Below are positions 15,955 through 44,862 of a stretch of 64,000 nt of DNA, piece by piece. Under the pieces are notes generated by a model. It was not told where the DNA came from, did no database searches, and saw only the letters and a list, made by a program, of their open reading frames with translations. The position numbers and the translations under genes were made by a program. The DNA is from an uncultured virus (IMG/VR IMGVR_UViG_3300046820_002883) (lineage: Duplodnaviria; Heunggongvirae; Uroviricota; Caudoviricetes). Positions within the stretch are counted from its first letter, which is position 1; each line of letters opens with the position of its first letter. Where the stretch lies: the IMG/VR virus record IMGVR_UViG_3300046820_002883. The stretch is one strand, 5' to 3'.

Positions 15955-16821
15955 TTAACAAGAGATTATATCGATTTGTAAAGTGGTTGTACCCGATGGT
16001 ATAGTGTAGTTATACACGGGTATTTGTGATAAAGAACTACCTGAATTGGTATATACACTCACCCCATTTCTTATGATATCATAAGAAATTCCCGCAGGTC
16101 CATATGATGTACATCCAGCACCTGTTGTGGATTCAAATAAAGAAATATTAATTACATCACCAACAGATACAGTTGTTGACCCATTTGTGGTCCCAACTGA
16201 TTGTGTAAAACTAACGGTAAAGAATGTTGTACCATTTTTCTTCAACGTACCCGATGTTTTGGCACAAACATCACATTTATCGTAGGAATATGATAGGGTG
16301 AATGTACTTGATAAGGATGTTGTTGGGGTCGGAGTAGGGGTTTTTGTTGGTGTTGGTGTACGAGTTGGAGTAACAGATGGTGTACGGGTTGGTGTTACAG
16401 TTGGTGTACGAGTTGGAGTAGGGGTTTTTGTTGGTGTTGGTGTACGAGTTGGTGTTACAGTTGGTGTACGAGTTGGAGTAGGGGTTTTTGTTGGTGTAGG
16501 GGTTGGGGTACCGTCAAGATAAGAACCTGTACAATTTGAATCAACATCAAAACACATTGTATTATAACATGGATATGCATTAGTATCGTGAGTGTAGATA
16601 TTTTTAATAATGTATCTACCTGTTGTTTGGTCGGTCATTTTAACCCAATATTGGGTATTAAAACTTAAACCACTAATTGTTACTTCATTTGAAGTTAAAC
16701 CTGTATTGAACAAGGTGAACGTTGAATCGGTCGTTTCAGGATATGGTGACGCTCCGGTCTTATACCTTAAAGTATATGGTCCGTCAAAAACAATATTGTA
16801 TAATTTTACATTTAATCCCAT
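15955..16821 (-). CDS. FN3-like domain + TPT(K/R) linker + beta domain, putative virion fibre component
   Basis: 288 aa; [16 protein letters not shown] resembles an FN3 strand pattern; TATTTAT motif at 16831-16837. Confidence 0.85.
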
Positions 16822-16857
16822 TGGTATTCTATAAATACTTTATTACTTATTTTATTA

Positions 16858-19800
16858 TTAACAATCACATCCACCGTATGTTGGATTACATTCAGTTCCG
16901 CAGTTACCAACTTGTGAAGCTGTAGAGTTCGGTGCCACCACATAATTTCCGCCTACTATTATGTATAAACCAAAGAATTGTATTGCACATTTTCGCCATG
17001 TACCAGGAGGTAATGCTTCATTTTCCCATGTACTTTGACAACATTGATAAAATGCATGTACTTGACCGTCTGATGAAGCCGCAGCGTCTGCTGGGTCAAC
17101 ATTAATTTCCCAACAGTTACACTGATTTGCGTCGGGATTACAATCACCGACCAATGAAACGGCGGCATTTCCTCCGTTCACGTTTACACTACCTACACAG
17201 GCACAAAAGTCAAGTCGATAACCAGTCGCGGCTATAATCTCGGGGGTGATAATAACTGAAGAGGATGGGTCACAACAAGTTTGGTAATCGATAGATTGTA
17301 CATTAGGAGTAATTGAATCAATTCGGTATTTTTTACAAACACATCCCGGAATTGATGGTGTTGGGGTAGGTGTTGGTGTATTAGTTGGTGTTGAAGTTGG
17401 TTGTGGTGATTCTGATGGTGGAGGTGTCGATGCTACTGTTCTTGTTGGTGTAGGTGTTGGTGTTGGTGTTATAGTACGAGTAATAGTTGGTGTAACTGTT
17501 GGTGTAACTGTTGGTGTAACTGTTGGGGTTATAGTACGAGTAATTGTTGGAGTTATCGTAGGGGTAACTGTTGGGGTTAATGTAGGTGTAGGTGTTCTTG
17601 TTGGTGTAACAGATTGTGTAACTGCAGGAGTTCCACCCGGTGTTCTGGTTGGTGTAGGTGTTACACTAGTTGTTGGGGTAATTGTTGGTGTAATTGTTGG
17701 TGTAATGGTAGGTGTTACAGTTGGTGTTATTGTTCTTGTTGGTGTAATGGTAGGAGTAATGGTTGGTGTAATAGTCGGTGTGATTGTAGGTGTGATTGTA
17801 GGTGTGATTGTTCTTGTCGGTGTAATTGTGGGAGTTGATGTAGGAGTTGGTGTTGGACAAGGTCTTGCAACAACACATTCATTACAAGTAGCAAATGTAC
17901 CGGTTGGTGTGTAAACAGTGAGGAACGAATTAAATAAAATTACAGTTGCGTTACTATAACAAAATCCATTAATTACATATGCAAATGATGGGTTAGCAAT
18001 TATGGCATTAAAATCGGCCTGTGTTACGTTAAATTCAAAACCATCAGGACTACAACAACTAACCATTCTTATCGAAACATAAACAGTTGTTGGTGTTACC
18101 GTAGGAGTAACGCTAGTTGTAGGTGTAATTGTAGGTGTAATTGTAGGTGTTCTAGTCGGTGTTACTGTTGGAGTGATAGTCGGTGTTACCGAAGTAGTCG
18201 GTGTAATGGTAGGTGTTATTGTTGGAGTTACTGTGGGAGTTATAGTTGGAGTAACCGATGGGGTAACAGCGGGAGTACCTGTTGGGGTAATGGTTGGTGT
18301 AATGGTTGGTGTTACAGAATTTGTTGGGGTAATGGTTGGAGTAATGGTCGGTGTGATGGTAGGTGTTACCGTTGGAGTAACTGAAGTAGTTGGTGTGATT
18401 GTGGGGGTAATGGTTGGAGTTATTGTCGGAGTTCTAGTTGGAGTAATGGTTGGTGTAACTGATGTGGTTGGAGTTATAGTTGGTGTAATAGTCGGAGTAA
18501 CGGTAGGAGTTACTGTTGGCGTAATAGTAGGAGTTACTGATGTAGTTGGCGTAATAGTAGGAGTTACAGTTGGAGTAATTGTAGGAGTTACTGTTGGCGT
18601 AATAGTAGGAGTTACTGATGTAGTTGGCGTAATAGTAGGAGTTACAGTTGGAGTAATTGTAGGAGTTACTGTTGGCGTAATAGTTGGAGTTACTGAAGTT
18701 GTTGGGGTAATGGTCGGTGTGATTGTAGGGGTAATTGTTGGTGTTTGAGTCGGTGTCAACGTTGGAGTTACAGAAGTTGTTGGTGTAATCGTTGGTGTTA
18801 CTGTTGCGGTTCTAGTTGGAGTTACTGACGGTGTAATTGTCGGTGTAACTGATGTTGTTGGTGTTATAGTAGGGGTAATAGTAGGAGTTACTGTCGGGGT
18901 AATAGTTGGTGTGATAGTAGGAGTTACCGATGTTGTTGGAGTTATAGTTGGAGTGACTGTTGGTGTAACTGTAGGGGTAATAGTAGGAGTTACTGTTGGT
19001 GTAACTGATGTTGTTGGTGTAATAGTAGGTGTAACCGTTGGTGTTATGGTTGGTGTTACTGACGGTGTGATGGTAGGAGTCACTGATGTTGTTGGTGTGA
19101 TGGTAGGAGTGACTGTTGGGGTAATAGTCGGTGTTATAGTAGGTGTAACCGAAGTCGTTGGGGTAATGGTAGGTGTGATTGTGGGTGTTACGGTTGGTGT
19201 AACAGATGTAGTTGGTGTTATAGTTGGAGTAATGGTTGGTGTTATTGTGGGTGTTACGGTTGGTGTAACAGATGTAGTTGGTGTTATCGTTGGGGTAATG
19301 GTTGGTGTTATTGTGGGTGTTACGGTTGGTGTAACAGATGTAGTTGGTGTTATCGTTGGGGTAATGGTTGGAGTAACTGTAGGGGTAACTGTAGGTGTAA
19401 CAGATGTAGTTGGTGTAATAGTTGGAGTGACTGTTGGTGTAACTGTTGCAGTTCTAGTTGGGGTAATTGTTGGTGTTACAGAAGTTGTTGGGGTTATTGT
19501 AGGTGTAATAGTTGGTGTGACTGTAGGGGTAACTGTAGGTGTTACTGTAGGAGTAACTGAGGTAGTTGGCGTTACAGATGTGGTTGGGGTTATAGTCGGA
19601 GTAACTGTTGCAGTTATAGTTGGAGTTACAGTAGGTGTAACTGAGGTTGTAGGAGTAATGGTTGGGGTGATGGTAGGTGTTACAGTTGGTGTTACTGTTG
19701 GTGTGACTGAGGTTGTAGGTGTAATGGTAGGAGTAATGGTTGGTGTTACGGTAGGGGTAATAGTTGGTGTTATAGTTGGAGTAACTGAGGTAGTGGGTGT

Positions 19801-22800
19801 TATTGTTGGTGTTACCGTTGGGGTAATAGTTGGTGTAACACTAGTTGTTGGTGTTATAGTTGGTGTAATTGTAGGTGTAACAGTTGGAGTTACTGTTGGG
19901 GTTACAGAAGTTGTTGGAGTAACTGATGTTGTTGGTGTGATGGTCGGAGTCACTGTAGGTGTAATCGTAGGAGTTACCGTAGGTGTTACTGTTGGAGTTA
20001 CTGATGTTGTTGGAGTAATAGTCGGAGTTACCGTTGCAGTTCTGGTTGGTGTAACGGTTGGTGTGACAGTTGGTGTAATTGATGTTGTAGGTGTAATGGT
20101 AGGAGTGACCGTAGCAGTTACTGTTGGAGTAATAGTTGGAGTAACTGACGTGGTTGGTGTAATAGTAGGTGTTACCGTAGGTGTTTGGGTCGGCGTAACT
20201 GAAGTTGTTGGAGTAACCGTAGGTGTGATTGTTGGTGTAACTGTTGGAGTAACTGATGTTGTTGGTGTTATAGTAGGAGTAACCGTAGGGGTCTGAGTAG
20301 GTGTTAGTGTTGGGGTTACTGATGTTGTAGGGGTAATTGTAGGTGTAATAGTAGGGGTTACTGTTGGAGTAATTGTAGGTGTTACTGAAGTTGTTGGAGT
20401 AATGGTTGGCGTGATGGTAGGAGTGGTTGTTGGTGTAACTGATGTAGTTGGCGTGATGGTTGGAGTTACGGTTGGGGTAATGGTTGGTGTTACTGAGGTT
20501 GTAGGGGTAATGGTTGGAGTAACTGTTGGAGTAATAGTTGGCGTAACCGAAGTAGTCGGTGTAATAGTTGGTGTTACTGTTGGGGTAATAGTCGGAGTAA
20601 CAGTTGGTGTAACGGAAGTTGTTGGTGTAACGGAAGTTGTTGGCGTTATTGTAGGTGTCACCGTAGGTGTTTGAGTCGGTGTGATTGTTGGTGTAACTGA
20701 AGTAGTTGGTGTAATAGTCGGAGTAACTGTTGGGGTAACCGAAGTTGTTGGAGTTATTGTAGGTGTTACCGTTGCGGTCCTAGTTGGAGTTATAGTTGGG
20801 GTTACAGATGTAGTTGGTGTTACTGATGTAGTAGGGGTGATAGTCGGTGTTACAGTCGGTGTGATTGTAGGTGTTACTGTTGGAGTTACAGAAGTTGTAG
20901 GTGTAATTGTTGGTGTTACTGTTGGAGTTATAGTTGGTGTAACTGAGGTTGTAGGAGTAATGGTTGGGGTGATGGTAGGTGTTACTGTTGGAGTTACAGA
21001 AGTTGTAGGTGTAATTGTTGGTGTTACTGTTGGAGTTATAGTTGGTGTAACTGAGGTTGTAGGAGTAATGGTTGGGGTGATGGTAGGTGTTACAGTTGGT
21101 GTTACTGACGTGGTTGGTGTTATTGTAGGAGTAACCGTAGGTGTTTGAGTCGGTGTCAACGTTGGAGTTACTGATGTTGTAGGGGTAACGGAAGTAGTTG
21201 GAGTAATGGTAGGTGTAATTGTAGGTGTTACTGACGGTGTAATGGTTGGCGTAACCGAAGTAGTCGGTGTAATAGTTGGTGTTACTGTTGGAGTAACCGT
21301 CGGAGTTATAGATGTAGTTGGAGTTACCGTTGGAGTAATTGTAGGTGTTACTGTAGGTGTAACTGAGGTAGTCGGTGTGATTGTGGGTGTAATGGTAGGA
21401 GTAACAGTTGGAGTAACTGTTGGTGTTACAGATGTAGTTGGTGTTATTGTAGGAGTTACTGTCGGGGTAACCGTAGCAGTTCTAGTGGGGGTGATTGTAG
21501 GAGTAACAGAGGTAGTTGGAGTGATGGTCGGAGTAACTGTCGGGGTAACTGTTGGCGTAACTGTTGGAGTTACTGATGTTGTTGGAGTAATGGTTGGAGT
21601 TATAGTTGGAGTAACCGTTGGAGTAACAGATGTGGTTGGTGTTATGGTCGGAGTGATTGTTGGAGTTACCGTAGGAGTAACAGAAGTTGTAGGGGTTACA
21701 GTAGGTGTTTGAGTCGGTGTTATCGTTGGAGTTACCGAAGTTGTTGGAGTAATGGTTGGAGTTATAGTTGGAGTTACTGTTGGTGTTACTGTTGGTGTTA
21801 CGGAAGTTGTTGGTGTTGTAGTTGGAGTAATAGTCGGTGTTACTGTTGCAGTTCTAGTTGGAGTGATGGTTGGTGTGACAGAAGTTGTTGGAGTTATAGT
21901 CGGCGTTACCGTTGAAGTTATAGTTGGCGTAACTGTAGGTGTTACAGATGTAGTTGGTGTTATTGTTGGAGTAACTGTAGGTGTTACAGATGTAGTTGGT
22001 GTTATTGTTGGAGTAACTGTAGGTGTTTGAGTTGGTGTAACTGTCGGGGTGACAGAAGTTGTTGGAGTAATTGATGTAGTTGGGGTTATTGTTGGTGTAA
22101 CTGTTGCAGTTATAGTTGGGGTAATGGTCGGTGTGACAGAAGTTGTTGGTGTGATTGTAGGAGTTACTGTTGGGGTAACTGTAGGTGTTACTGAGGTAGT
22201 GGGTGTTATAGTTGGAGTAACTGTAGGTGTTACTGTCGGGGTAACTGAGGTTGTTGGTGTTATTGTAGGAGTAATAGTAGGAGTTACTGTTGGAGTTACA
22301 GATGTTGTGGGAGTAATAGTCGGTGTTACCGTAGCAGTTCTAGTTGGAGTGATTGTAGGAGTGACAGAAGTAGTAGGTGTTATAGTAGGAGTAATGGTAG
22401 GAGTTACTGTTGGTGTAACAGAAGTCGTTGGTGTGATAGTAGGAGTTACTGTCGGTGTTTGAGTCGGAGTAATTGTGGGTGTTACAGATGTAGTAGGAGT
22501 TACGGATGTTGTTGGCGTGATTGTCGGTGTAACCGTTGCAGTAACGGTAGGTGTCACCGTTGGGGTAACAGATGTTGTCGGTGTTATTGTTGCGGTAACT
22601 GTCGGCGTTACGGTTGGTGTAACAGAGGTAGTTGGAGTAATAGTTGGGGTTACAGTTGGTGTAACAGTTGGTGTAACCGAAGTTGTCGGTGTGATAGTAG
22701 GTGTTACGGTTGGAGTAACTGTAGGGGTAACGGTAGGTGTTACCGAAGTCGTAGGAGTTATTGTTGGCGTTACCGTAGCAGTTCTAGTCGGTGTTACTGT

Positions 22801-25800
22801 TGGAGTGATAGTCGGTGTTACTGATGTTGTTGGTGTAATAGTCGGAGTTACCGTTGCGGTTACGGTTGGAGTTACCGTAGGAGTAACAGATGTTGTTGGT
22901 GTAATTGTAGGGGTTACTGTAGGTGTAATTGTCGGGGTAACCGATGTAGTTGGAGTAATGGTTGGAGTAACTGTTGGTGTTTGAGTCGGTGTAACAGAGG
23001 TTGTGGGTGTGATTGTCGGTGTAACCGTTGCAGTAACGGTAGGTGTCACCGTTGGGGTAACAGATGTTGTCGGTGTAATAGTAGGAGTTACCGTTGGAGT
23101 AATAGTTGGTGTAACTGAAGTTGTTGGTGTAATAGTTGGGGTTACAGTTGGTGTGACAGTTGGTGTAACCGAAGTTGTCGGTGTGATAGTAGGTGTAACC
23201 GTTGGTGTTATGGTTGGTGTTATGGTTGGCGTAACAGAAGTAGTTGGTGTTATCGTTGGCGTAACTGTTGATGTAACTGTAGGTGTCACTGTTGGGGTAA
23301 CAGAAGTTGTGGGGGTAATTGTTGGTGTCACCGTAGGTGTTACCGTAGGTGTTACTGATGTGGTAGGTGTGATTGTAGGTGTGATTGTGGGTGTCACAGT
23401 AGGAGTAACAGATGTTGTTGGTGTAATGGTAGGGGTTACAGTAGGAGTTTGAGTCGGTGTCAACGTCGGTGTTACGGAAGTTGTTGGCGTAACTGAGGTT
23501 GTAGGAGTAATAGTCGGAGTTACCGTAGCAGTTCTAGTTGGGGTAATTGTAGGGGTTACCGATGTTGTTGGTGTTATAGTTGGAGTAACCGTTGGTGTCA
23601 CCGTTGGGGTAACACTGGTTGTTGGTGTTATAGTTGGGGTAACTGTAGGAGTAACAGTTGGAGTTACTGATGTCGTAGGAGTAACCGTTGGTGTTTGGGT
23701 AGGTGTCAACGTTGGTGTAACCGAAGTGGTTGGAGTTACCGTTGGAGTAATTGTAGGTGTTACCGTAGGTGTTACAGAAGTAGTTGGAGTTACAGTTGGT
23801 GTTATTGTCGGAGTTTGAGTCGGTGTGATGGTTGGAGTCACCGAAGTCGTTGGTGTTATAGTTGGGGTAATGGTTGGGGTTACTGTTGGGGTTCTAGTTG
23901 GAGTTACCGTTGGAGTGACAGATGTTGTGGGGGTAACTGATGTCGTTGGAGTAATGGTTGGTGTTACAGTTGCCGTAACTGTAGGTGTAATTGTTGGGGT
24001 TATAGATGTAGTTGGAGTTACAGTTGGGGTAATAGTCGGAGTAATAGTAGGCGTAACTGAAGTAGTTGGTGTTATTGTTGGTGTCACGGTTGGTGTTACC
24101 GTCGGTGTTACCGATGTTGTCGGTGTTATTGTAGGTGTTACAGTTGCCGTAACAGTAGGTGTCACAGTTGGGGTAACAGATGTAGTTGGTGTAATCGTTG
24201 GAGTAACCGTAGGTGTTTGAGTTGGTGTTACTGTTGGGGTTACACTAGTTGTTGGAGTAATTGTAGGAGTAACTGTCGGAGTTACTGTTGGTGTAACAGA
24301 AGTTGTGGGAGTAATTGTAGGTGTTACCGTAGCGGTTCTGGTTGGGGTAACTGTTGGTGTTACAGATGTGGTTGGTGTAACCGATGTTGTTGGAGTAATG
24401 GTTGGCGTGATGGTAGGAGTGGTTGTTGGTGTGACAGTTGGTGTCACAGAGGTAGTTGGAGTAATAGTAGGTGTTACCGTCGGTGTTTGAGTCGGTGTTA
24501 CTGAAGTAGTTGGTGTAATGGTAGGTGTAACTGTCGGAGTTACGGTTGGTGTGATTGAAGTAGTTGGTGTGATTGTGGGAGTTACTGTTGCGGTAACAGT
24601 GGGGGTTACTGTTGGAGTAACTGAGGTAGTTGGTGTAACTGATGTGGTAGGAGTTATAGTTGGAGTAACTGTTGCGGTTCTAGTTGGGGTAATAGTTGGG
24701 GTAACTGAGGTAGTCGGTGTGATAGTAGGTGTTACTGTAGGTGTTACCGTTGGTGTTACTGATGTTGTAGGAGTTATAGTTGGCGTAATGGTTGGTGTTA
24801 CCGTCGGTGTAACTGTAGGAGTGACACTAGTTGTCGGTGTAATTGTAGGTGTAATAGTAGGGGTTACTGTTGGAGTAATTGTAGGTGTTACTGAAGTTGT
24901 TGGAGTAATGGTTGGCGTGATGGTAGGAGTGGTTGTTGGTGTAACTGATGTAGTTGGCGTGATGGTTGGAGTTACGGTTGCAGTAACGGTAGGAGTAACA
25001 CTAGTTGTTGGAGTAACTGAGGTTGTTGGGGTAATTGTTGGTGTAATAGTTGGTGTTACAGTAGGTGTTACTGTAGGAGTTACTGATGTTGTTGGGGTTA
25101 TAGTTGGGGTGACAGAAGTAGTTGGCGTGATTGTAGGAGTAACCGTTGCCGTAACTGTAGGTGTTACTGTTGGAGTTACAGATGTTGTAGGAGTTACCGT
25201 TGGAGTAACAGATGTAGTTGGTGTTATAGTAGGAGTAACCGTAGGGGTCTGAGTAGGTGTTAGTGTTGGGGTTACTGATGTTGTAGGTGTTATAGTCGGT
25301 GTTATAGTTGGAGTTACTGTTGGTGTAACTGAGGTAGTTGGTGTAATAGTTGGAGTTACTGTTGGTGTAACTGTAGGGGTTACGGTGGGTGTTACCGATG
25401 TTGTCGGGGTTACTGATGTAGTTGGAGTTACAGTTGGTGTTATTGTCGGAGTTTGAGTCGGTGTCAACGTCGGTGTAACACTAGTTGTTGGAGTAATAGT
25501 TGGTGTTACTGTTGCAGTAACGGTAGGTGTCACCGTTGGGGTAACAGATGTTGTCGGTGTTATTGTTGGGGTAACTGTTGGTGTTACGGTTGGTGTTACG
25601 GTTGGTGTAACTGAAGTTGTTGGCGTGATGGTTGGAGTAATGGTTGGTGTTTGAGTTGGGGTAACTGAAGTTGTTGGTGTAATAGTTGGGGTCACTGTCG
25701 GTGTTACTGTTGGTGTTACTGTTGGTGTTACCGATGTAGTTGGAGTAATAGTAGGTGTAACCGTTGGGGTAACAGAGGTTGTTGGTGTAATGGTTGGTGT

Positions 25801-28800
25801 TACCGTGGCAGTTCTAGTGGGTGTAATGGTAGGTGTAATCGATGTAGTTGGAGTAACCGATGTAGTTGGAGTGATTGTCGGTGTAACGGTTGGAGTAATG
25901 GTAGGTGTAATTGTTGGTGTTACGGTTGGTGTGATTGAAGTAGTTGGCGTAATAGTCGGAGTTACTGTGGGAGTAACTGTCGCAGTTCTCGTTGGGGTAA
26001 TGGTTGGAGTAACAGAGGTTGTTGGTGTTACAGATGTTGTAGGAGTGATAGTAGGGGTGACTGTTGCGGTAACTGTCGGCGTTACGGTTGGTGTAACTGA
26101 AGTGGTTGGTGTTATCGTTGGTGTAACGGTGGGTGTGACAGTTGGTGTTACAGATGTTGTAGGAGTGATAGTAGGGGTGACTGTTGGTGTAATTGTAGGT
26201 GTAACCGAAGTTGTAGGGGTTATAGTTGGTGTAATAGTAGGAGTTATAGTTGGAGTTATAGTTGGGGTAACCGATGTAGTTGGTGTTACAGAAGTCGTTG
26301 GTGTGATAGTTGGTGTAATAGTGGGAGTTTGAGTGGGAGTGATAGTTGGTGTTACTGAAGTTGTTGGTGTAATTGTAGGAGTGATTGTAGGTGTTACAGT
26401 TGGTGTTACTGAAGTGGTTGGAGTTATTGTGGGTGTTACCGTTGCAGTTCTAGTTGGAGTTATAGTTGGGGTAACCGATGTAGTAGGAGTTACTGAAGTA
26501 GTAGGGGTAATGGTTGGAGTAATTGTGGGGGTTACAGTAGGTGTTACAGTTGGTGTTACTGAAGTGGTTGGAGTAACTGTAGGTGTCACAGTTGGAGTAA
26601 CCGATGTAGTTGGAGTCGCGGTAGGGGTAATGGTTGGAGTAATTGTGGGGGTTTGGGTTGGTGTAACCGATGTTGTTGGTGTTATAGTTGGAGTAACAGT
26701 TGCAGTAACTGTAGGTGTCACAGTTGGAGTAACCGATGTTGTTGGTGTAATGGTTGGAGTAACTGTAGGGGTTACGGTGGGTGTTAATGTTGGGGTTACT
26801 GATGTTGTAGGTGTGATGGTTGGTGTAACTGTTGCAGTAACTGTAGGTGTCACAGTTGGAGTAACACTAGTTGTTGGCGTTACCGATGTTGTTGGTGTAA
26901 TGGTTGGAGTAACTGTAGGGGTTACGGTGGGTGTTAATGTTGGGGTTACTGATGTTGTAGGTGTGATGGTTGGTGTAACTGTTGGTGTAACCGATGTAGT
27001 AGGGGTAATGGTTGGAGTAATTGTGGGGGTTCTAGTTGGTGTTATAGTTGGTGTTACAGATGTAGTAGGAGTTACGGATGTTGTTGGCGTAATTGTAGGG
27101 GTTACTGTAGGTGTTTGAGTAGGAGTTCCTGTTGGAGTTATAGAAGTGGTCGGCGTTACTGTTGGAGTGATAGTTGGTGTTACTGTGGGGGTAACTGAAG
27201 TCGTAGGAGTAATAGTTGGTGTTACTGTAGGGGTAATGGTTGGTGTTACTGAAGTAGTTGGAGTTACTGTGGGTGTGATGGTTGGGGTTATAGTTGGTGT
27301 TCTAGTTGGGGTTACTGAAGTTGTTGGTGTAACGCTAGTAGTTGGAGTAATTGTAGGAGTAACTGTAGGAGTTTGAGTCGGTGTCAACGTTGGTGTAACA
27401 CTGGTTGTTGGTGTAATGGTTGGTGTTACTGATGGCGTAATGGTCGGTGTTACCGAAGTTGTTGGGGTGATGGTTGGTGTAATAGTTGGAGTGATTGTGG
27501 GAGTGATGGTTGGTGTAACTGAAGTCGTAGGAGTTAGAGTTGGAGTTGTGGTCGGAGTAACAGAGGTTGTTGGAGTAACGGTTGGTGTGGTTGTTGGGGT
27601 TACTGTGGGAGTCCTAGTAGGAGTAACAGAGGTTGTTGGTGTCAATGTTGGTGTAACTGAAGTCGTAGGAGTTATAGTTGGGGTTACTGTTGAAGTAACA
27701 GTTGGTGTAACGGTTGGAGTTACACTAGTAGTTGGGGTTATAGTTGGTGTAATAGTAGGAGTTACTGTTGGTGTAACAGTTCTAGTTGGGGTAACTGTCG
27801 GAGTTATAGTTGCGGTAACAGTAGGAGTTACGGTTGGAGTAACTGATGTAGTTGGTGTTATAGTCGGCGTAATAGTTGGAGTAACCGTTGGGGTGATTGT
27901 GGGAGTAATTGTTGGTGTTTGCGTCATTGTTGGAGTCGATGTTGGGGTCGGACTCGGTATCATTGTATAATCAATATCACATGCAGGTGCTGGTGTTACA
28001 GTTGGTGTCGGTGTAAATGTTGGAGTTACAGAAGTTGTTGGTGTAATCGTTGGTGTTACTGTTGCGGTAAGTGTTGGTGTTACTGTAGGTGTAACAGAAG
28101 TAGTTGGAGTGATAGTAGGTGTAACCGTAGGGGTTACTGAAGTCGTTGGTGTAATAGTTGGTGTTACTGTCGGTGTCTTAGTAGGGGTGATAGTTGGTGT
28201 TATAGATGTTGTTGGCGTGATTGTAGGTGTTATAGATGTTGTTGGCGTGATTGTAGGTGTAACTGTTGCGGTAACTGTTGGTGTCACCGTTGGAGTTACT
28301 GAAGTTGTTGGTGTAATGGTAGGGGTAACTGTTGGTGTAACTGAAGTCGTAGGAGTAATGGTAGGTGTGACTGTAGCGGTTCTAGTTGGAGTAATGGTTG
28401 GGGTCACACTAGTTGTAGGGGTTACTGAAGTCGTAGGAGTGATTGTTGGTGTTATTGTCGGAGTTTGAGTCGGTGTCAATGTAGGAGTTACAGATGTGGT
28501 CGGGGTAACGGTAGGTGTAATCGTTGGTGTAACTGAAGTTGTTGGTGTAATTGTAGGAGTGATTGTTGCCGTTACAGTTGGTGTAATAGTAGGAGTAACT
28601 GAAGTTGTTGGGGTAATAGAGGTTGTTGGTGTAATCGTTGGAGTTATAGTTGGTGTAATGGTTGGTGTAACAGTAGGTGTTACCGTAGGGGTAACAGACG
28701 TTGTTGGTGTAACTGAAGTTGTTGGAGTAATTGTGGGAGTAACCGTTGCGGTAACTGTAGGTGTAATAGTAGGCGTTACAGATGTTGTTGGAGTGATTGT

Positions 28801-31539
28801 TGGGGTAATGGTAGGTGTTCTAGTGGGGGTGATTGTAGGAGTAACGGAGGTAGTTGGTGTAACAGAAGTCGTTGGCGTGATAGTAGGAGTGACTGTTGGT
28901 GTTTGAGTCGGTGTCAACGTCGGTGTTACAGATGTGGTTGGTGTTATGGTTGGGGTAATGGTAGGGGTGATAGTCGGCGTTACTGATGTAGTTGGCGTGA
29001 TGGTTGGAGTAACTGTTGCTGTTCTAGTAGGTGTAACGGTGGGTGTCACCGAAGTAGTTGGTGTAACTGATGTGGTTGGTGTTATCGTAGGAGTAACCGT
29101 CGGGGTTCTAGTAGGTGTTACAGTTGGTGTAACTGATGTGGTTGGCGTAATGGTCGGGGTAATAGTTGGAGTTACTGTTGGTGTTATACTAGTTGTTGGA
29201 GTAATAGTTGGAGTTACTGTTGCAGTAACTGTAGGAGTTACCGTAGGAGTAACTGATGTAGTTGGGGTAATGGTTGGAGTGATTGTAGGAGTAACAGAGG
29301 TTGTTGGTGTCAATGTTGGTGTTACCGTAGCAGTTCTAGTTGGAGTGATTGTAGGAGTAACAGAGGTTGTTGGTGTCAATGTTGGTGTAACTGAAGTTGT
29401 AGGAGTAACAGTTGGAGTTACTGTTGCAGTAACTGTAGGTGTAATAGTTGGTGTTACTGATGTGGTTGGTGTAACTGTAGGAGTAGTTGTGGGTGTGATA
29501 GTAGGTGTTACCGATGTAGTTGGTGTAATAGTTGGAGTAACTGTGGGTGTTCTAGTTGGAGTAATGGTTGGTGTAACCGAAGTGGTTGGAGTTATAGTTG
29601 GTGTAACTGTGGGAGTCACTGATGTGGTTGGTGTAATTGTAGGAGTAATGGTTGGTGTTACTGTAGCAGTTCTAGTTGGAGTGACAGAAGTTGTTGGAGT
29701 TACCGTAGGTGTTACCGAAGTGGTTGGGGTTGTTGTTGGTGTAACTGTGGGAGTTTGAGTCGGTGTTACCGTTGGAGTAACAGAAGTAGTTGGTGTTATA
29801 GTTGGAGTAATGGTGGGAGTCACTGTGGGTGTTACAGATGTTGTAGGTGTAATAGTTGGTGTAACCGTAGCGGTAACGGTAGGTGTTACTGTTGGGGTAA
29901 CCGATGTAGTTGGGGTAATAGTTGGTGTAACCGTAGGTGTTATAGTAGGACTTATCGTTGGTGTAACAGAAGTTGTTGGAGTGATAGTAGGAGTTATCGT
30001 TGCAGTAACTGTTGGTGTAACTGTGGGAGTCACTGAAGTTGTAGGTGTAATTGTAGGTGTAATTGTAGGTGTTTGAGTCGGTGTTACCGTTGGTGTGATT
30101 GTAGGTGTTACACTAGTTGTGGGGGTAATAGTAGGTGTTACCGTTGCAGTTCTAGTTGGTGTAATAGTAGGAGTAACTGAAGTTGTTGGTGTAATGGTCG
30201 GAGTTACGGTAGGAGTTACTGTAGGGGTCACAGATGTTGTAGGTGTAATAGTTGGAGTCACTGTTGCAGTAACGGTAGGAGTGACTGTTGGTGTAACAGA
30301 GGTAGTAGGAGTAACTGAAGTAGTCGGAGTAACCGTAGGTGTTTGAGTCGGTGTTACCGTTGGGGTGGTAGTGGGAGTAACTGAAGTGGTTGGTGTTATC
30401 GTAGGTGTTTGAGTCGGTGTAACCGTTGGGGTAACAGAAGTTGTTGGTGTGATTGTTGGGGTAACCGTAGGTGTGACTGTAGAGGTCACAGTAGGAGTTA
30501 CACTGGTAGTTGGGGTTACAGATGTTGTTGGCGTGGTAGTAGGTGTTGTTGTTGGAGTGACTGTTGGAGTAACCGATGTGGTTGGTGTAATTGTGGGTGT
30601 TATAGTTGGTGTTTGTGTAGGTGTAATTGATGTAGTGGGAGTTACAGTTGGTGTTTCACTTGGGGTTAATGTGGGGGTCACCGAGGTGGTGGGTGTTACG
30701 GTAGGTGTTTCACTTGGAGTAAGAGTTGGTGTTACGGATGTAGTTGGAGTAATGGTTGGGGTTATCGTAGGTGTTACTGTAGGAGTTACAGATGTGGTGG
30801 GTGTTACCGTTGGTGTTTCACTTGGAGTAAGAGTTGGTGTTACTGATGTAGTTGGTGTAATAGTTGGGGTAATTGTAGGTGTTACTGATGTGGTTGGTGT
30901 AATTGTAGGAGTAACTGTTGGTGTCTCACTTGGTGTTAATGTAGGAGTAACTGAAGTTGTGGGAGTAATAGTTGGAGTGATAGTTGGGGTAACAGTAGGA
31001 GTCTCACTTGGTGTTTGAGACGGGGTGACTGTTGGAGTCATGGTCGGTGTTACTGCAGGTGTCTCACTTGGTGTAATTGTGGGTGTAATTGTGGGTGTTG
31101 ATGTTGGTGTTACTGTTGGAGTGGTTGTTGGAGTGGTTGTTGGGGTAATAGTAGGAGTGTTTGTAACCGTAATAGTAGGGGTATTTGTTGGTGTGATAGT
31201 AAGTGTAACTGTAGGTGTTGGGGTAGTCGTTACTGTCGGTGTCAATGATGGTGTTCTGGTAACACTTGGAGTAAGAGTTGGTGTTGTGGTCGGAGTAACA
31301 GACGGACTTGGTACGATAGGTGAACTTGTAGGTGTTGGGGTAGGACAAACAATACCAACTTCACATGTTTTATTTAAGTTAACAAAGTAAACAGAGTAAG
31401 TTCCGATATAATAATCGGTCTCATAATAGTACGGCATTGTGACAGTACCTAAGTTAATTGTACCACCCGAACATGGGTAGAAAACAATTGTCGCTGTTTG
31501 ACCATCATAATTACCCGTATTTATTTTAACTAATGCCAT
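16858..31539 (-). CDS. Giant mucin-like Pro/Thr repeat protein (4893 aa) with small Cys-containing N-terminal domain and Cys-rich C-terminal modules
   Basis: Uninterrupted 14.7-kb ORF; ~4400 residues of TPT(V/I/Q/R/L) and TPTTSV units with heavily varied synonymous codons. Confidence 0.9.
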   Translation of the reverse strand: MALVKINTGNYDGQTATIVFYPCSGGTINLGTVTMPYYYETDYYIGTYSVYFVNLNKTCEVGIVCPTPTPTSSPIVPSPSVTPTTTPTLTPSVTRTPSLTPTVTTTPTPTVTLTITPTNTPTITVTNTPTITPTTTPTTTPTVTPTSTPTITPTITPSETPAVTPTMTPTVTPSQTPSETPTVTPTITPTITPTTSVTPTLTPSETPTVTPTITPTTSVTPTITPTITPTTSVTPTLTPSETPTVTPTTSVTPTVTPTITPTITPTTSVTPTLTPSETPTVTPTTSVTPTLTPSETPTVTPTTSITPTQTPTITPTITPTTSVTPTVTPTTTPTTTPTTSVTPTTSVTPTVTSTVTPTVTPTITPTTSVTPTVTPTQTPTITPTTSVTPTTTPTVTPTQTPTVTPTTSVTPTTSVTPTVTPTVTATVTPTITPTTSVTPTVTPTVTPTITPTTSVTPTITPTRTATVTPTITPTTSVTPTITPTVTPTQTPTITPTITPTTSVTPTVTPTVTATITPTITPTTSVTPTISPTITPTVTPTITPTTSVTPTVTPTVTATVTPTITPTTSVTPTVTPTITPTITPTTSVTPTVTPTQTPTVTPTTTPTTSVTPTVTPTTSVTPTRTATVTPTITPTITPTTSVTPTVTPTITPTTSVTPTITPTRTPTVTPTITPTTSVTPTITPTTTPTVTPTTSVTPTITPTVTATVTPTVTPTTSVTPTLTPTTSVTPTITPTRTATVTPTLTPTTSVTPTITPTITPTTSVTPTVTPTVTATVTPTITPTTSITPTVTPTITPTITPTTSVTPTVTPTRTPTVTPTITPTTSVTPTTSVTPTVTPTRTATVTPTITPTTSVTPTITPTITPTITPTTSVTPTLTPTQTPTVTPTITPTTSVTPTTSVTPTITPTRTPTITPTITPTTSVTPTITPTVTATVTPTITPTTSVTPTTSVTPTVTPTVTPTITPTITPTITPTTSITPTTSVTPTITPTVTATITPTITPTTSVTPTITPTVTPTTSVTPTLTPTQTPTITPTITPTTSVTPTTSVTPTITPTRTATVTPTITPTTSVTPTVTPTITPTTSVTPTVTPTVTATVTPTITPTTSITPTITPTTSITPTITPTKTPTVTPTITPTTSVTPTVTPTITPTTSVTPTVTPTLTATVTPTITPTTSVTPTFTPTPTVTPAPACDIDYTMIPSPTPTSTPTMTQTPTITPTITPTVTPTITPTITPTTSVTPTVTPTVTATITPTVTPTRTVTPTVTPTITPTITPTTSVTPTVTPTVTSTVTPTITPTTSVTPTLTPTTSVTPTRTPTVTPTTTPTVTPTTSVTPTTTPTLTPTTSVTPTITPTITPTITPTITPTTSVTPTITPSVTPTITPTTSVTPTLTPTQTPTVTPTITPTTSVTPTTSVTPTRTPTITPTITPTVTPTTSVTPTITPTVTPTITPTTSVTPTVTPTITPTVTPTTSITPTGTPTQTPTVTPTITPTTSVTPTTSVTPTITPTRTPTITPTITPTTSVTPTVTPTITPTTSVTPTLTPTVTPTVTPTITPTTSVTPTTSVTPTVTPTVTATVTPTITPTTSVTPTLTPTVTPTVTPTITPTTSVTPTVTPTVTATVTPTITPTTSVTPTQTPTITPTITPTATPTTSVTPTVTPTVTPTTSVTPTVTPTVTPTITPTITPTTSVTPTTSVTPTITPTRTATVTPTITPTTSVTPTVTPTITPTITPTTSVTPTITPTQTPTITPTITPTTSVTPTTSVTPTITPTITPTITPTITPTTSVTPTITPTVTPTITPTTSVTPTVTPTVTPTITPTTSVTPTVTPTVTATVTPTITPTTSVTPTTSVTPTITPTRTATVTPTVTPTITPTTSITPTVTPTITPTITPTVTPTITPTTSVTPTTSITPTITPTRTATVTPTITPTTSVTPTVTPTITPTTSVTPTVTPTVTPTVTPTITPTTSVTPTQTPTITPTITPTTSVTPTVTPTVTPTVTPTITPTTSVTPTVTPTVTATVTPTITPTTSVTPTLTPTQTPTITPTVTPTTSVTPTTSVTPTVTPTVTPTVTPTITPTTSVTPTVTPTITPTITPTTSVTPTLTPTQTPTVTPTITPTTSVTPTVTPTTSVTPTVTPTVTATVTPTITPTTSVTPTITPTTSVTPTVTPTVTPTITPTITPTTSVTPTTSVTPTVTATVTPTITPTTSVTPTTTPTITPTITPTTSVTPTITPTVTPTITPTITPTTSVTPTVTPTVTPTITPTITPTTSVTPTVTPTVTPTITPTTSVTPTITPTRTATVTPTITPTTSVTPTTSVTPTVTPTVTATVTPTITPTTSITPTVTPTVTPTITPTTSVTPTQTPTVTPTITPTTSVTPTVTPTTTPTITPTITPTTSVTPTTSVTPTVTPTRTATVTPTITPTTSVTPTVTPTVTPTITPTTSVTPTVTPTQTPTVTPTITPTTSVTPTVTPTVTATVTPTITPTTSVTPTVTPTVTPTITPTTSVTPTITPTITPTVTPTTSITPTITPTVTATVTPTITPTTSVTPTTSVTPTVTPTRTPTVTPTITPTITPTTSVTPTITPTQTPTITPTVTPTTSVTPTVTPTITPTVTPTTSVTPTLTPTQTPTVTPTTSVTPTVTPTVTPTITPTTSVTPTVTPTVTPTITPTTSVTPTITPTRTATVTPTITPTTSVTPTTSVTPTLTPTQTPTVTPTITPTTSVTPTVTPTITPTITPTTSVTPTVTPTVTPTITPTTSVTPTVTPTVTSTVTPTITPTTSVTPTITPTITPTVTPTITPTTSVTPTVTPTVTPTITPTTSVTPTITPTVTPTITPTTSVTPTVTPTVTATVTPTITPTTSVTPTQTPTVTPTITPTTSVTPTITPTVTPTITPTTSVTPTVTPTVTATVTPTITPTTSVTPTITPTVTPTRTATVTPTITPTTSVTPTVTPTVTPTVTPTITPTTSVTPTVTPTVTPTITPTTSVTPTVTPTVTATITPTTSVTPTVTPTVTATVTPTITPTTSVTPTTSVTPTITPTQTPTVTPTITPTTSVTPTVTPTITPTITPTTSVTPTITPTRTATVTPTITPTTSVTPTVTPTITPTITPTTSVTPTVTPTVTPTITPTTSVTPTVTPTVTPTITPTTSVTPTITPTITATVTPTITPTTSITPTTSVTPTVTPTQTPTVTPTITPTTSVTPTVTPTITPTTSVTPTVTPTITSTVTPTITPTTSVTPTITPTRTATVTPTITPTTTPTTSVTPTVTPTVTPTITPTITPTTSVTPTITPTQTPTVTPTTSVTPTVTPTITPTITPTTSVTPTVTPTITPTITPTTSVTPTVTPTVTPTVTPTITPTTSVTPTITPTRTATVTPTVTPTITPTTSVTPTVTPTVTPTITPTITPTTSVTPTVTPTITPTVTPTTSITPTVTPTVTPTITPTTSVTPTITPSVTPTITPTITPTTSVTPTTSVTPTLTPTQTPTVTPTITPTTSVTPTVTPTITPTITPTTSVTPTITPTVTPTITPTTSVTPTVTPTITPTITPTTSVTPTITPTVTPTITPTTSVTPTVTPTITPTVTPTITPTTSVTPTTSVTPTITPTRTATVTPTITPTTSVTPTVTPTITPTTSVTPTITPTQTPTVTPTITPTTSVTPTTSVTPTVTPTITPTVTPTITPTTSVTPTITPTVTPTITPTTSVTPTITPTVTPTITPTTSVTPTTTPTITPTITPTTSVTPTITPTVTPTITPTITPTTSVTPTLTPTQTPTVTPTITPTTSVTPTVTPTITPTVTPTTSVTPTQTPTVTPTITPTTSVTPTITPTVTATVTPTITPTTSITPTVTPTVTPTRTATVTPTITPTTSVTPTVTPTVTPTITPTVTPTITPTTSVTPTTSVTPTVTPTVTPTITPTITPTTSVTPTITPTVTPTITPTTSVTPTITPTITPTVTPTITPTITPTTSVTPTVTPTVTPTITPTITPTTSVTPTVTPTITATVTPTITPTTSVTPTTSVTPTVTPTVTPTVTPTITPTITPTTSVTPTITPTRTATVTPTVTPTITPTTSVTPTVTPTVTPTITPTITPTTSVTPTVTPTITPTITPTITPTTSVTPTVTPTITPTITPTITPTTSVTPTVTPTITPTITPTTSVTPTITPTITPTVTPTITPTTSVTPTITPSVTPTITPTVTPTITPTTSVTPTVTPTITPTVTPTVTPTITPTTSVTPTITPTITPTVTPTITPTITPTTSVTPTITPSVTPTRTATVTPTITPTTSVTPTLTPTQTPTITPTITPTITPTTSVTPTITPTVTPTITPTVTPTITPTTSVTPTITPTVTPTITPTVTPTITPTTSVTPTITPTVTPTVTPTITPTITPTTSVTPTITPTRTPTITPTITPTITPTTSVTPTVTPTITPTITPTITPTNSVTPTITPTITPTGTPAVTPSVTPTITPTVTPTITPTITPTTSVTPTITPTVTPTRTPTITPTITPTTSVTPTVTPTTVYVSIRMVSCCSPDGFEFNVTQADFNAIIANPSFAYVINGFCYSNATVILFNSFLTVYTPTGTFATCNECVVARPCPTPTPTSTPTITPTRTITPTITPTITPTITPTITPTITPTRTITPTVTPTITPTITPTITPTTSVTPTPTRTPGGTPAVTQSVTPTRTPTPTLTPTVTPTITPTITRTITPTVTPTVTPTVTPTITRTITPTPTPTPTRTVASTPPPSESPQPTSTPTNTPTPTPTPSIPGCVCKKYRIDSITPNVQSIDYQTCCDPSSSVIITPEIIAATGYRLDFCACVGSVNVNGGNAAVSLVGDCNPDANQCNCWEINVDPADAAASSDGQVHAFYQCCQSTWENEALPPGTWRKCAIQFFGLYIIVGGNYVVAPNSTASQVGNCGTECNPTYGGCDC
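18085..31345 (-). repeat. Degenerate 12/18-nt coding tandem repeat array (VTPT, ITPT, TPTTSV)
   Basis: + strand reads GTNGGNGT-type units; local exact duplications, e.g. 108-bp x2 at 20867-21082 and 78-bp period from 18509. Confidence 0.97.
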
Positions 31540-31701
31540 CTAATCGCTGAGAATTCCTTTCTTCTTAAATATTGTTAATATAAGAACTTAAAAGAAATTT
31601 GTAAAGAAATTTATCGTTTATGAGTAACGATAATATAAATAAAATTTTAGTAAATGAAAAATGATTCAACGAATGTTGAAGTATTTTATTTTTCATATCC
31701 A

Positions 31702-34700
31702 TTACGGACAACCAAATGGACTTTCTTCTAATTCAATATTTGTGGGTTCGGTAGGACAATTTACCGGGTCGATGTAATATTGAACTAAGTCAAAATTAAT
31801 GTTAGGGTGTTTATTGTACTGATGTTTTAATAATAATTGTTCGTTTGAGTTTCCATTAAAAATAACAACAAATTCACTGTTTAAATCTACATTGTCTTTA
31901 CTAAAATTAATGTTATAATATAGATTTGGTTCACAATAATTCAAATCGACATCAATAACCTCAATTGGAAAACCGTATTGGTTGATTAAATAATCTCCAT
32001 GATTATATAATTCTTTTGGGTGGTCACAACAAGGTTCGATAAAATCGGTTGGTTTCTTTTGTAATTCCTCAGGGAATCTATCATCAAAGAAATACGTGCT
32101 ATTTGTTGGTACACCAAAATTTTCAACTATTCTATTGGTATAAACTCTTAATTGTGTTGTGGGTAAGACTTCAAAAACTTCGTAATCATCATTTAGTGTC
32201 AATCCGGTAATTATACTTTTCTTAACCGATGCTAAACAATCAATGTCGGTTACTTTTAATTTTACATATTTGTATGTAAATGAGAAACCTGAAGTTGTTG
32301 AATCTAAAATATTTTGAAAATTATAGGAAGAGCATGGTAGGTATTCGGCAGATAAAACATATTCATTAACCACCAAATCGTAAACATTTTTTTCAATAAT
32401 CGTTCCACCACTTATATATGACATAATATCATCTTTTGTGGTCCCACTATTAATTGTTGTTCCTGAGTTTACAACCAATACTTTGGTATCATATTTTAAT
32501 CCGTAATCAAAATTACTTATGTATTCAACTTTTGGTATTAGTGTATACCCTGTGTAGTTATCACAATAAGTTGCCCCCGTTTGTCTTGAAATTGTTGTTG
32601 AACCTTGGATACCAAAAATTTCAAAAATTTCTGTGTGACTTTTACCTGTTTCGGGACACGGGTCGTTACCAATCTGTGGTTGTAAACCTTCAATTCTAAA
32701 TTTAACTTCTTTATTTGCAGCATCTATGATATTGAAATCAATAATATCATTAACACTAACACCCGTTAATTTAAATTTACAATCATCACCCGAAATCTTC
32801 TCAATGTAGTAATCTGCGTTTTGGTTATAACCCGAAACACAATTCGCGTACATGAAGAATGACCTATCAGAATATTTTTGAACGCTGGTTTTTTCCCCAA
32901 TTACTTCAATGTAAATGTCAGAAACAAATGAACACCCTGTCGGGGTTTCACAAATATATTCACCGTTACCGGTGACTTCAACACTTATAATCCCTGAATT
33001 TTTGTTTACATTGTAATCCGCCTCAAATCTATAATCAAAATAATCACTAACAGAACAATCATTCATTCCGTATTTTATAGATGAGAATCTAATTTTTTCT
33101 ACACCATCAATATCGATAAAAGTTTCGTAGTTAATTAATGGTAAAGATTCAATATAAGCGGTTTGACCTGTGGTTCCGGTATATGGTGCATAGTTTTCAT
33201 ATCCAGCACTAAATCTTGTGATTGTAATTGTTGAGATTAGTTCAGATATTGCACTCATCCACAATTGTTTAATCTTGACGATATCGGGTTCCAAATAATC
33301 TTTATAATCACAAATTAATGCCAGATTAACCGGGTCATTTGATGAAACAATACTTGTACATCCTGTAATTGGGAATGGGTTAAACAATTGAGCACTGTTT
33401 GTGGTGTTTGTTATACCACTAACAACTACAGACATGCTCGGAGTAAAACCTGTATAATCCGGACCACCATAAATCACACCATCAATTTCAATTAATGGAT
33501 AATATGTCACCCCTGAAATAGTAATTAGCGACCTAAAGTTTGGTTCCTCACCAATCATTGTTTCTAAATCTTCTTCAATTACATTTTCAAAATCGGGATA
33601 TAAACTTTCAATAAATTGAAGTGGTTGACAACCAAATCTATATTGATATTTAGACCTACCAAATACGTTATTCTCAATTAAATTACCTCCAGTCCATTGT
33701 GTAGTTGATGGTAATAATTGTTCAACTAATTGTGGCCAATAGGGTGAAATTTTATTAATAAATTCTGTTACGTCAATTTGGTGGTAAGGTGTAAATCCTG
33801 TTTGACTTAAATAATCCGTGAAAACATCTTCAAGTTGGATATAATTTTTCTTATATCTAACTTTATTTGAATTTGTGACAAGACTATGAATAAATGAATC
33901 AATAAACTCGGCGTATGTTTTTCCTGTTTGTGGATATAATGTATTTGAACCAAAAGATAACTCCAATTCACTACTTTTTCTGTAGATATCGTAGTTAACA
34001 CCATTCGCAGGTGAAATATGAATACCAATGTTCTTTCTGTTTAAAATTAGAATAGAATCATCTTGGTACTGTTGTCCTTTTGCATTATCGACACCACCAA
34101 CTAAGTTATAACCGGTGTCTAAACCGGGTAATGTTCTGAAAACATCAAAATAATCCTCACCATAAGTGTATGGTTTATTTTTTGTTTTTATGGTTTTTGT
34201 TCTACCTGTTAAAATTGAACTTTCGTCATCAATAACCAAAGGAGAACGATGTGACAATGTATTATCGTACCATCCTGAACCCGCACCAAAGAATATATTT
34301 TCAATTGCATTAGTTGCTCTTCTTGGTAAACCCGTAATTTCATCTACAGGGTACCCGTCTCTATTAAATGTGGTTGTTCCTGTGTATGTAATTACATTGT
34401 AGGTATAACCCGTAACATTAAGATTGGCGTAACTATATGTTTTTGTACCTTGGATTACATCATAAATGTCTTTTTCCAAATCAAAACTTGACGGCATTGA
34501 TGTTACTTTGTAAACATACTCGTCAATTTTAATTAGAGGTTCTGGTGCTCCTAAAAATTTTAAAAAGAAATCAATCGATGCTCTTGTACCTTTAGATTTG
34601 TAGATATATGCTAAGTTTACAAGTAATCTTCTATAAAAATCAAATTCCGCATTAACTAAATTTGTTCCGGTTGAAACTCCGTTGTAATTTGAGTCAAGTC

Positions 34701-44807: not shown

Positions 44808-44862
44808 TATTATCTATAAATAGAAAATTATGTGTTTCCAGAAATAATAAATAAAAAATAAA

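Follow-up and report, generated by a model that had tools for sequence, protein, structure and literature searches.

A 4,893-residue threonine-proline protein of an uncultured tailed phage as a candidate virion tether tipped for host binding

The serine-rich-repeat adhesins of Gram-positive bacteria, among them Fap1, GspB and PsrP, have a very long stalk with a hydroxy amino acid at every second residue, and this stalk holds a binding region off the cell surface. Phages make first contact through appendages such as the head filament of the Caulobacter phage phiCbK, the long tail fibres and whiskers of T4, and the fibres of flagellotropic phages. These are folded, usually trimeric, and measure about 0.1-0.3 um. 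Here we describe a gene for a giant protein with a stalk of alternating Thr and other residues (Thr-X) that is encoded by a phage. It is found in a 64,000-nucleotide stretch of DNA from an uncultured member of the Caudoviricetes (IMG/VR record IMGVR_UViG_3300046820_002883). The whole stretch is called the window in what follows and its positions are counted from its first letter. Its source is most likely a freshwater, myovirus-like phage. A preliminary description of the locus, made from the sequence, had presented the product as a mucin-like virion filament. The evidence leans, though not heavily, towards a tether that is carried by the virion and ends in a host-binding tip, and the kinship with mucins is not borne out.

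The gene takes up 14,682 of the 64,000 bases of the window (22.9%, given earlier as 23%). Thr (2297 residues), Pro (1002), Val (561), Ile (391) and Ser (280) together make up 92.6% of the whole protein, which is 47% Thr and 20% Pro and has a calculated mass of 494 kDa. It contains only 42 Arg and 6 Lys, and the array accordingly yields few tryptic peptides. A sliding count of Thr and Pro separates four segments that are not rich in Pro and Thr (PT): residues 1-69, 1180-1198, 4480-4564 with 6 Cys, and 4725-4893 with 16 Cys. Translation and sliding composition place every element of the domain plan of the preliminary description at its coordinates (Table 1). Its statement that the protein has no signal peptide agrees with inspection of the first 30 residues, made by eye and not by a predictor, in which no hydrophobic signal-like stretch is visible.

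Between residues 70 and 4480, Thr or Ser occupies 2,196 of the 2,206 positions in one phase of the array, a regularity far beyond chance. In the other phase stand Pro (937), Val (520), Ile (352) and Thr (241), with few Ala, Arg, Gln and Leu. The elementary unit is x-T-P-T, which occurs 487 times as VTPT and 340 times as ITPT. A higher-order unit (n = 226) ends in TTS[VI] and is between 6 and 26 residues long, in increments of four. The most frequent length is 22 residues (93 units), followed by 18 (60), 6 (27), 26 (23), 14 (12) and 10 (6). At the DNA level, Tandem Repeats Finder reported degenerate periods only, all multiples of 6 and most with 60-86% matches. Within the gene 95% of 51-mers are unique, no 151-mer recurs and the longest exact repeat is 142 nt. 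When the array is shifted against itself the identity is ~68% along its whole length, which is the expectation for two fixed codon positions and a randomised third, and self-comparison gave no high-scoring segment pair of at least 90% identity over at least 100 nt. For Thr, Pro, Val, Ile and Ser, the array makes the same synonymous codon choices as 17 other window genes. Because its DNA copies are not identical, its 51-mers are mostly unique and its codon choice is like that of the other window genes, the array is old and native and has not undergone a recent run-away expansion.

That this is a real coding gene is close to certain. An IMG/VR contig of 18.9 kb, which holds loci L001 and L003, is colinear with positions 45937-28379 of the window at ~94% identity and stops inside the array. 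The initial 3,161 nt of the gene match L003 at 92.6% identity and with no gap, so that 1,053 codons contain no insertion or deletion (indel). The minus-strand coding frame is confirmed by the distribution of the nucleotide differences, 204 of 235 of which are at third codon positions. Counted by codon, 189 differences are synonymous and 23 are non-synonymous. The ratio of non-synonymous to synonymous change (pN/pS) is 0.057 for this part of the array and 0.051 for codons 1-1100 of the adjacent 1,413-residue structural gene. The array is under strong purifying selection. Since 22 of the 23 residue changes hit the x phase and one hits the Thr phase, it is the Thr phase that is maintained. Many plus-strand open reading frames (ORFs) of 80-461 residues overlap the giant gene (window 18173-31390). 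They are shadows of the repeat, a Gly/Val-rich antisense reading, and not genes, because the strain differences sit at the third positions of the minus-strand frame.

Contigs of four freshwater sequencing runs from four studies together cover 30 of 30 bins of the region 16500-32000. Run X1, which contains 91% of the sampled words, is possibly the window's own source sample, and runs X3 and X4 contain array pieces of 244-345 nt with zero differences from the window. Among the contigs listed for the four runs none spans the entire gene, so that the total gene length rests on one assembly. In the bin 17017-17533 each of the four runs has contig depths in the thousands, and loose ends and joints are numerous there; depth was recorded per contig and played no part in ranking segments of the gene. 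The depth in this bin is due to PT-coding DNA of many other lake organisms or phages that cross-maps onto the second PT block.

The N-terminal domain carries the motif F-x-P-C-S-G-G-T-I-N-L-G ... P-Y-x-Y ... G-x-Y-S-x-Y-F. Searches with back-translated patterns led to 19 loci in IMG/VR and 38 in metagenomes that carry this domain (44-100% identity), although these 57 loci are not all independent and several are the same or near-identical contigs. The alignment of 14 sequences (A1) has 20 invariant columns, including PCSGGTIN, G46, Y48, Y51 and C65, and the giant protein is 49-72% identical to the loci aligned. A profile search of 1.84 billion representative proteins gave 486 clusters at E<=1e-3, of which 305 also reach E<=1e-10. 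In the window, hmmsearch finds a single copy, at residues 1-70 of the giant protein (E=6e-34). The domain begins at residue 1-4 in most of the best 150 clusters, and a PT block comes after it in 136 of the 150 best relatives. The representatives of these 150 clusters are 52-1,727 residues long (median 340), and their longest PT block has 204 residues vs 4,431 in the giant protein. By its N-terminal domain the giant protein is a member of the A1 family, and by far the longest among those examined.

Complete family genes, coding for 147-1,437 residues, are present in 37 of the 57 loci, and the genes in the other 20 run off the contig. By our own mask, 14 of these 20 end within a PT tract (L003, L004, L010, L012, L015, L022, L026, L028-L030, L036, L038, L055 and, doubtfully, L043). 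In L004 and L022, which are the two nearest relatives (72% identity), the sequence breaks in a TPTNT[LV] array that is alternating as well. Because the contigs break inside PT tracts, long arrays are probably under-sampled, and short-read metagenome assemblies probably truncate genes of this family systematically. The relatives hold one to four tandem genes that share the N-terminal domain and differ in their C-termini. The sole break in the main array of the giant protein (APACDIDYTMIPS) looks like the end of the N-terminal domain in L018 and L020 (PCDLIVEFPTPT), and, judged by eye, it may be the vestige of two fused tandem genes. A Pfam scan of the C-termini of 30 longer relatives, picked from the best 150, found domains in 8 and none in 22. 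The domains are the BspA-type leucine-rich repeat LRR_5, Fib_succ_major (twice), DUF285 (twice), PKD, a DUF5122 propeller, Laminin_G_3, Y_Y_Y and the phage tail Collar domain. A fixed docking end combined with swappable binding ends is the plan of a phage receptor-binding protein. The PHROG content of the neighbourhood was checked for 17 of the 57 loci, chosen with flanks and without duplicates. Collagen-like or other tail-fibre genes lie within 10 kb in 7 of the 17 (L005, L013, L016, L017, L019, L023 and L058). A match of phrog_677 to the L014 protein falls on its PT-rich part and is not counted as tail evidence.

The Cys-rich modules of the giant protein stand apart from known families. No relative of the C-terminal module was found in IMG/VR, in metagenome contigs, in a set of 5.8 billion proteins (at 297-2000 residues) or in the ORFs of L001-L021 and the window, and the ESM Atlas returned viral hypothetical proteins only, with scores below 0.9. 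The middle module has no match in Pfam, PHROGs or the same ORFs. A search of the N-terminal, middle and C-terminal modules against PHROGs gave nothing at E<=0.1 except one match of unknown function (E=0.065). The middle and C-terminal modules do not significantly resemble one another, nor do they resemble the modules of the neighbouring proteins, and the C-terminal module has no internal duplication and no BLASTP likeness to the 802-residue neighbour. When the C-terminal module is compared with the strain in runs X3 and X4, 27 codons are changed among the substitutions listed, 15 of them non-synonymously and 12 synonymously, and none of these substitutions changes a Cys. These counts cover the substitutions listed, and two small compensating indels lie within this comparison, which makes the result a hint and not a measurement. 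The non-synonymous share contrasts with that of the array (23 non-synonymous vs 188 synonymous) and suggests that the tip may be a Cys-braced scaffold with a fast-changing surface, like the tips of receptor-binding proteins.

Our favoured reading gives the protein an anchor, a line and a hook. The 66-residue N-terminal beta domain would dock it on the particle, probably on the tail or baseplate. The (x-T-P-T)n array of ~4,400 residues would form an extended, hydrophilic spacer without a fold, and the Cys-stabilised C-terminal modules would bind a structure on the host surface. Such a line would enlarge the volume that a drifting virion samples and so raise its encounters with small, sparse cells. 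The tip would make a first, reversible contact, after which the baseplate would complete adsorption. The anchored filament with a binding tip that had been proposed earlier finds support in the N-terminus conserved across 486 clusters, in the binding-type C-termini of relatives, in the tail-fibre neighbours at 7 of the 17 loci and in the fast-changing tip. The attachment to the virion, the docking site, the unfolded state of the stalk, the binding by the tip and the benefit for adsorption are inferred. The buoyancy or shielding function that was also proposed earlier would be conjectural. The earlier length of about 1 um stands as a contour. A polyproline-II chain rises 0.31 nm per residue, and the 4,411 residues of the array give a computed contour of ~1.4 um. 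The same figure does not stand as a usual span, since a flexible chain treated as a worm-like chain with an assumed persistence length of 0.5-5 nm has a computed root-mean-square span of ~40-120 nm. A reach of ~1 um would thus be the maximum, and the usual span would be tens of nm to ~0.1 um. A more speculative extension, to which we lend only tentative credence, is that the protein represents an undescribed class of appendage. This would be a single-polypeptide Thr-X fishing line with a contour on the micrometre scale, a novel anchor and interchangeable, fast-evolving, Cys-knotted tips. It would perhaps be sugar-coated by phage transferases of the N-acetylglucosamine (GlcNAc) type, like those encoded next to the genes of relatives, and its length, tunable from 50 to >4,400 residues, would set the capture radius that a virion has in dilute water.

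Several results weigh against the tether. The N-terminal domain has no match in Pfam, in PHROGs, in the sequences of the PDB (by profile search) or in 50,697 deposited phage records, and its docking role therefore rests solely on position and conservation. Word-indexed protein searches with the domain also gave nothing at 122-2000 or 2691-8563 residues. Structure prediction, which the preliminary description had called for, was made for both terminal domains. The AlphaFold2 (AF2) model of the N-terminal domain is all-beta with six strands, at a mean predicted local distance difference test score (pLDDT) of 64, which is low confidence, and Foldseek found no match for it in the PDB at E<=0.001. 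The single-sequence AF2 model of the C-terminal module, at a pLDDT of 41.8, is uninformative and cannot be used. Because this module has no known relative, the binding role of the tip is assigned by analogy. The three downstream PT/Cys proteins are without the family N-terminal domain in an hmmsearch of the window, which means that the domain is not necessary for this kind of build. Additionally, tail-fibre neighbours are absent from 10 of the 17 related loci, some of which lie next to replication genes. No RNA run with the gene was found among public runs, and no protein data were found. The array itself also poses a difficulty. A mere spacer does not explain Thr at every second position, a length that is stable between strains or the preference for units of 18 and 22 residues. 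The strict, selected alternation exceeds what a spacer needs and may point to glycosylation or an ordered structure, and these unexplained features leave room for a glycosylated bottle-brush or an ordered fibre.

A glycosylated stalk is a possibility that we regard as doubtful, and the full version of it as unlikely. In this version the stalk of a virion protein would be densely O-glycosylated in the infected cell and become a bottle-brush that is stiff, hydrated and resistant to proteases, like a stalk of the mucin or serine-rich-repeat type. The sugars would set its length and stiffness, and it might serve for shielding or for adhesion to particles. The Thr or Ser at each second position, kept by selection with 22 of 23 changes in the other phase, is consistent with it. 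We take PF11397 to be the family of protist GlcNAc transferases that act on polypeptides and hydroxyproline. In one sub-clade of the A1 family, a gene for a GlcNAc-type transferase of PF11397 is located at a distance of 1.3-2 kb from the family gene. It was identified by PHROGs and Pfam in L021 and L058 (Pfam E=1e-64; phrog_24687 1e-164) and by tblastn in L051, L052 and L059. In L058 it is followed by a gene for an RXYLT1_C-domain protein with a methyltransferase PHROG match, and the family gene of this locus codes for only 157 residues, the domain and a Thr-rich tail. A GT1-like gene is found within 10 kb in L007, L020, L021 and L058, and G004, the one complete related genome searched, contains PF11397. 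The window itself points the other way. None of its 40 ORFs scanned with Pfam is a glycosyltransferase, and tblastn with the transferases of three relatives gave noise only. The contigs of the closest relatives, G001 and G005 (13% and 6% complete), are also without a transferase, and in G003 and G004 the transferase genes are at least 100 kb from the fibre gene (~170 kb for the PF11397 gene of G004). Phage transferases, moreover, often modify DNA instead. There are no tRNA genes in the 64-kb window. Sugar-coating of stalks in part of the family is plausible.

An ordered and probably multi-chain fibre, built from turns of 18 or 22 residues or from pairing of Val/Ile faces, would make a rod of ~0.1 um like an ordinary long tail fibre. 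The strict polar/apolar alternation fits such a rod, as do the 153 of 226 units that are 22 or 18 residues long and end in TTS[VI], the purifying selection equal to that of the folded neighbour and the zero indels over 1,053 codons between strains. Pro is poorly accommodated in beta structure, however, and its recurrence at each fourth position is difficult to reconcile with sheets or solenoids. The unit lengths vary by fours from 6 to 26 residues and relatives have short, irregular PT or PE linkers in the same place, and on balance we find an ordered fibre improbable. More remote is a protein that is absent from the virion and acts in the infected cell or after lysis. It might, for instance, form a scaffold or condensates, serve as a decoy or be set free at burst as a sticky polymer. 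The lack of evidence for incorporation, the huge size and low complexity of the protein and the 10 loci without tail-fibre neighbours speak for it. A fixed N-terminal domain with swappable binding-type C-termini in tandem paralogues is nonetheless the build of a receptor-binding protein, the gene is on the same strand as a baseplate module and at its end, and inspection shows no export signal peptide. An assembly artefact or decaying pseudogene, with an inflated array or a frame kept open merely by repetitive composition, is highly improbable. Arrays of this kind are hard to assemble (14 of the 20 run-off genes, one doubtful, among 57 loci end in a PT tract), the gene is not spanned by any one contig listed for the four runs, and its antisense frames hold ORFs of up to 461 residues. 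The gene sequence is, however, unique at k>=151 and has no near-identical internal copies, the independent contig is gapless with mainly third-position differences, and both ends of the protein are conserved or Cys-patterned domains in one frame. An assembler is unable to create a 13-kb sequence that is mutually unique, in frame and codon-biased. The unique 51-mers, the absence of near-identical copies and the gapless contig likewise dispose of the earlier worry that the array length was an assembly expansion.

The genomic place of the gene fits the tether reading in part. The preliminary description had put it in the baseplate cluster. It is indeed on the same strand and at the distal end of a module led by gp25- and gp6-like genes, but it is separated from these upstream wedge genes by 13 kb, and none of the six large ORFs in the interval has a family match. 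The order of the upstream genes is shared with L004, where they code for 593, 270, 387, 305 and 1,433 residues vs 600, 272, 387, 305 and 1,413 in the window. The nearest phages by wedge protein, at 26-28% identity, are the Flavobacterium phage immuto, one uncultured phage with a 484-kb record and a Microcystis phage, and the reductase gene is similar to Cellulophaga phages over 185 nt; on these likenesses a Bacteroidota host would be no more than a guess. In phage immuto, genes annotated as tail fibre and tail spike are found 10-15 kb downstream of its counterpart of the wedge gene. This is the same slot as that of the giant gene and would suit a tail appendage. On one strand the window carries genes for ribonucleotide reductase, a DnaB-like helicase, UvsX-like and gp32-like proteins, primase, SbcCD, ClpP, a sigma factor and the wedge proteins. 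On the other side of the giant gene, phrog_15511 matches fall on the PT parts of the three downstream proteins and the 802-residue protein repeats GTPAVTQSVTPT many times. The PT DNA of these three genes is only 64-71% identical to the giant array. In the spacer upstream of the giant gene, an inverted repeat (TTATCGTT ... AACGATAA) directly after TATTTATA may be the terminator of the upstream gene or a regulatory hairpin. The same TATTTATA occurs on the coding minus strand at 16830-16837, 44815-44822 and 2137-2144 as well. It stands 6-14 nt before the starts of the genes at 15955-16821, 40671-44807 and 1751-2122, and ~95 nt before that of the giant gene. It may be a late-promoter-like element, although its overall count (13 vs 8.45 expected) is not above chance. 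The T4-type late promoter TATAAATA was set aside, with 13 matches vs 8.45 expected, which is not significant.

Table 1. Coordinates of the giant gene, its parts and neighbouring or related features (window positions unless a locus is named)
Feature	Position	Strand	Basis or remark
Whole gene	16858..31539	-	ATG start, 4,893 codons and stop (open reading frame)
N-terminal conserved domain, residues 1-66	31342..31539	-	alignment A1, profile search; proposed virion anchor
Thr-X array part 1, residues 67-1180	28000..31341	-	gapless match to L003 over residues 1-1053
Array interruption, residues 1181-1198 (one Cys, D, Y, M)	27946..27999	-	Thr+Pro count
Thr-X array part 2, residues 1199-4484	18088..27945	-	composition; zero-difference contig pieces from other runs
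Middle Cys module, residues 4485-4562, 6 Cys	17854..18087	-	no family or relative found
Second PT block, residues 4563-4730 (~170 residues)	17350..17853	-	contains GTPAVTQSVTPT, common to the 802-residue neighbour
C-terminal Cys-rich module, residues 4731-4893, 16 Cys	16861..17349	-	proposed ligand-binding tip
Three downstream genes, 288, 245 and 802 residues	12710..16821	-	small Cys-containing modules joined by PT linkers
Upstream spacer, 162 nt	31540..31701	-	TATTTATA at 31634-31641 (coding strand) and a hairpin-forming inverted repeat
Upstream gene, 1,413 residues	31702..35943	-	conserved, same gene order in L001, L004 and L002 (28% identity)
gp6/Baseplate_J-like wedge gene	44863-46695	-	PHROGs/Pfam-type family match
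gp25-like wedge gene	46697-47167	-	family match; heads the module with the gp6-like gene
Small GNAT acetyltransferase, between baseplate genes and ribonucleotide reductase	47211-47543	-	family scan
ClpP protease	2160-2834	-	family scan
Sigma-70-type factor	64-882	-	family scan
PF11397 neighbour genes, including the adjacent RXYLT1_C gene	L021 12582-13883; L058 11890-13152 and 13157-14545		Pfam/PHROGs

Should the giant protein prove to be part of the virion, phages would have a physically novel way of searching for hosts in dilute water. In place of the folded trimeric fibres of cultured phages there would be a line, disordered or stiffened by sugars, with many times the length of the particle, and a line shown on virions would be a new type of phage appendage. 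The protein belongs to a large unannotated family with a new anchor domain, PT stalks and swappable tips. This family is invisible in isolate collections, as there is no match to it in the 50,697 deposited phage records. The array also shows that low-complexity tracts can be tightly selected (pN/pS ~0.06, with one of 23 changes in the Thr phase), and it is a clean test case for protein O-glycosylation by phages. As many contigs end in such arrays, metagenome assemblies probably miss genes of this kind systematically.

Among the known systems, animal mucins are alike in composition (Thr, Pro, Ser, Val and Ile) and in plan, with an array rich in Pro, Thr and Ser (PTS) and Cys-rich ends. The likeness goes no further, and the protein was rejected as a mucin homologue. 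The N-terminal, middle and C-terminal modules have no match to VWD, C8, TIL, CysD or CTCK in Pfam, where the scan of the three gave only two unrelated sub-threshold matches. Unlike mucins, the giant protein has no mucin Cys domains or secretory signal and has a strict two-residue period, and animal mucin repeats are not known to have such strict periodicity. The serine-rich-repeat adhesins are closer in the alternation of hydroxy amino acid and X along the stalk. They differ in that the giant protein uses Thr-Pro and not Ser, has its anchor at the N-terminus and its putative tip at the C-terminus, and is encoded by a phage gene. Inspection found no signal-like N-terminus or LPXTG in it, and there are no SecA2/Y2 or GtfA/B genes among the scanned ORFs of the window. 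The likeness to these adhesins is analogy and not kinship. The PT boxes of bacterial glycoside hydrolases share the xPTx chemistry and the use as an extended spacer, a use also made of PT by the shorter members of the A1 family. Their linkers are ~20-200 residues long vs 4,400 in the giant protein. The Pfam PT repeat PF04886 was tried as a match, but no Pfam family at all was found at E<=1 for a piece of the array 500 residues in length.

The first-contact appendages of phages resemble the giant protein in the proposed job only, namely to reach out, make reversible contact and bring the baseplate to the cell. The giant protein differs from them in its low complexity, in a contour several times longer and in having no sequence likeness to them. 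Known tail-fibre families (collagen-like phrog_5073/6320, T4-type fibres and tail spikes) were considered and rejected, as the non-repeat modules match no tail-fibre PHROG or Pfam family. In the literature covered, from which most subscription journals are absent and which includes PMC12014285 and PMC7824862, there is no description of a giant PT or Thr-X fibre of a phage. The closest likeness is to the A1-domain family itself. Its members have the domain at residue 1, then a PT linker, then Cys-containing or binding-type modules; tail-fibre genes lie near them at 7 of the 17 loci checked and not at the other 10. The giant protein differs from them by a block that is 4,431 residues long and strictly alternating. 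It is an extreme variant of a modular phage adhesin or fibre with a linker.

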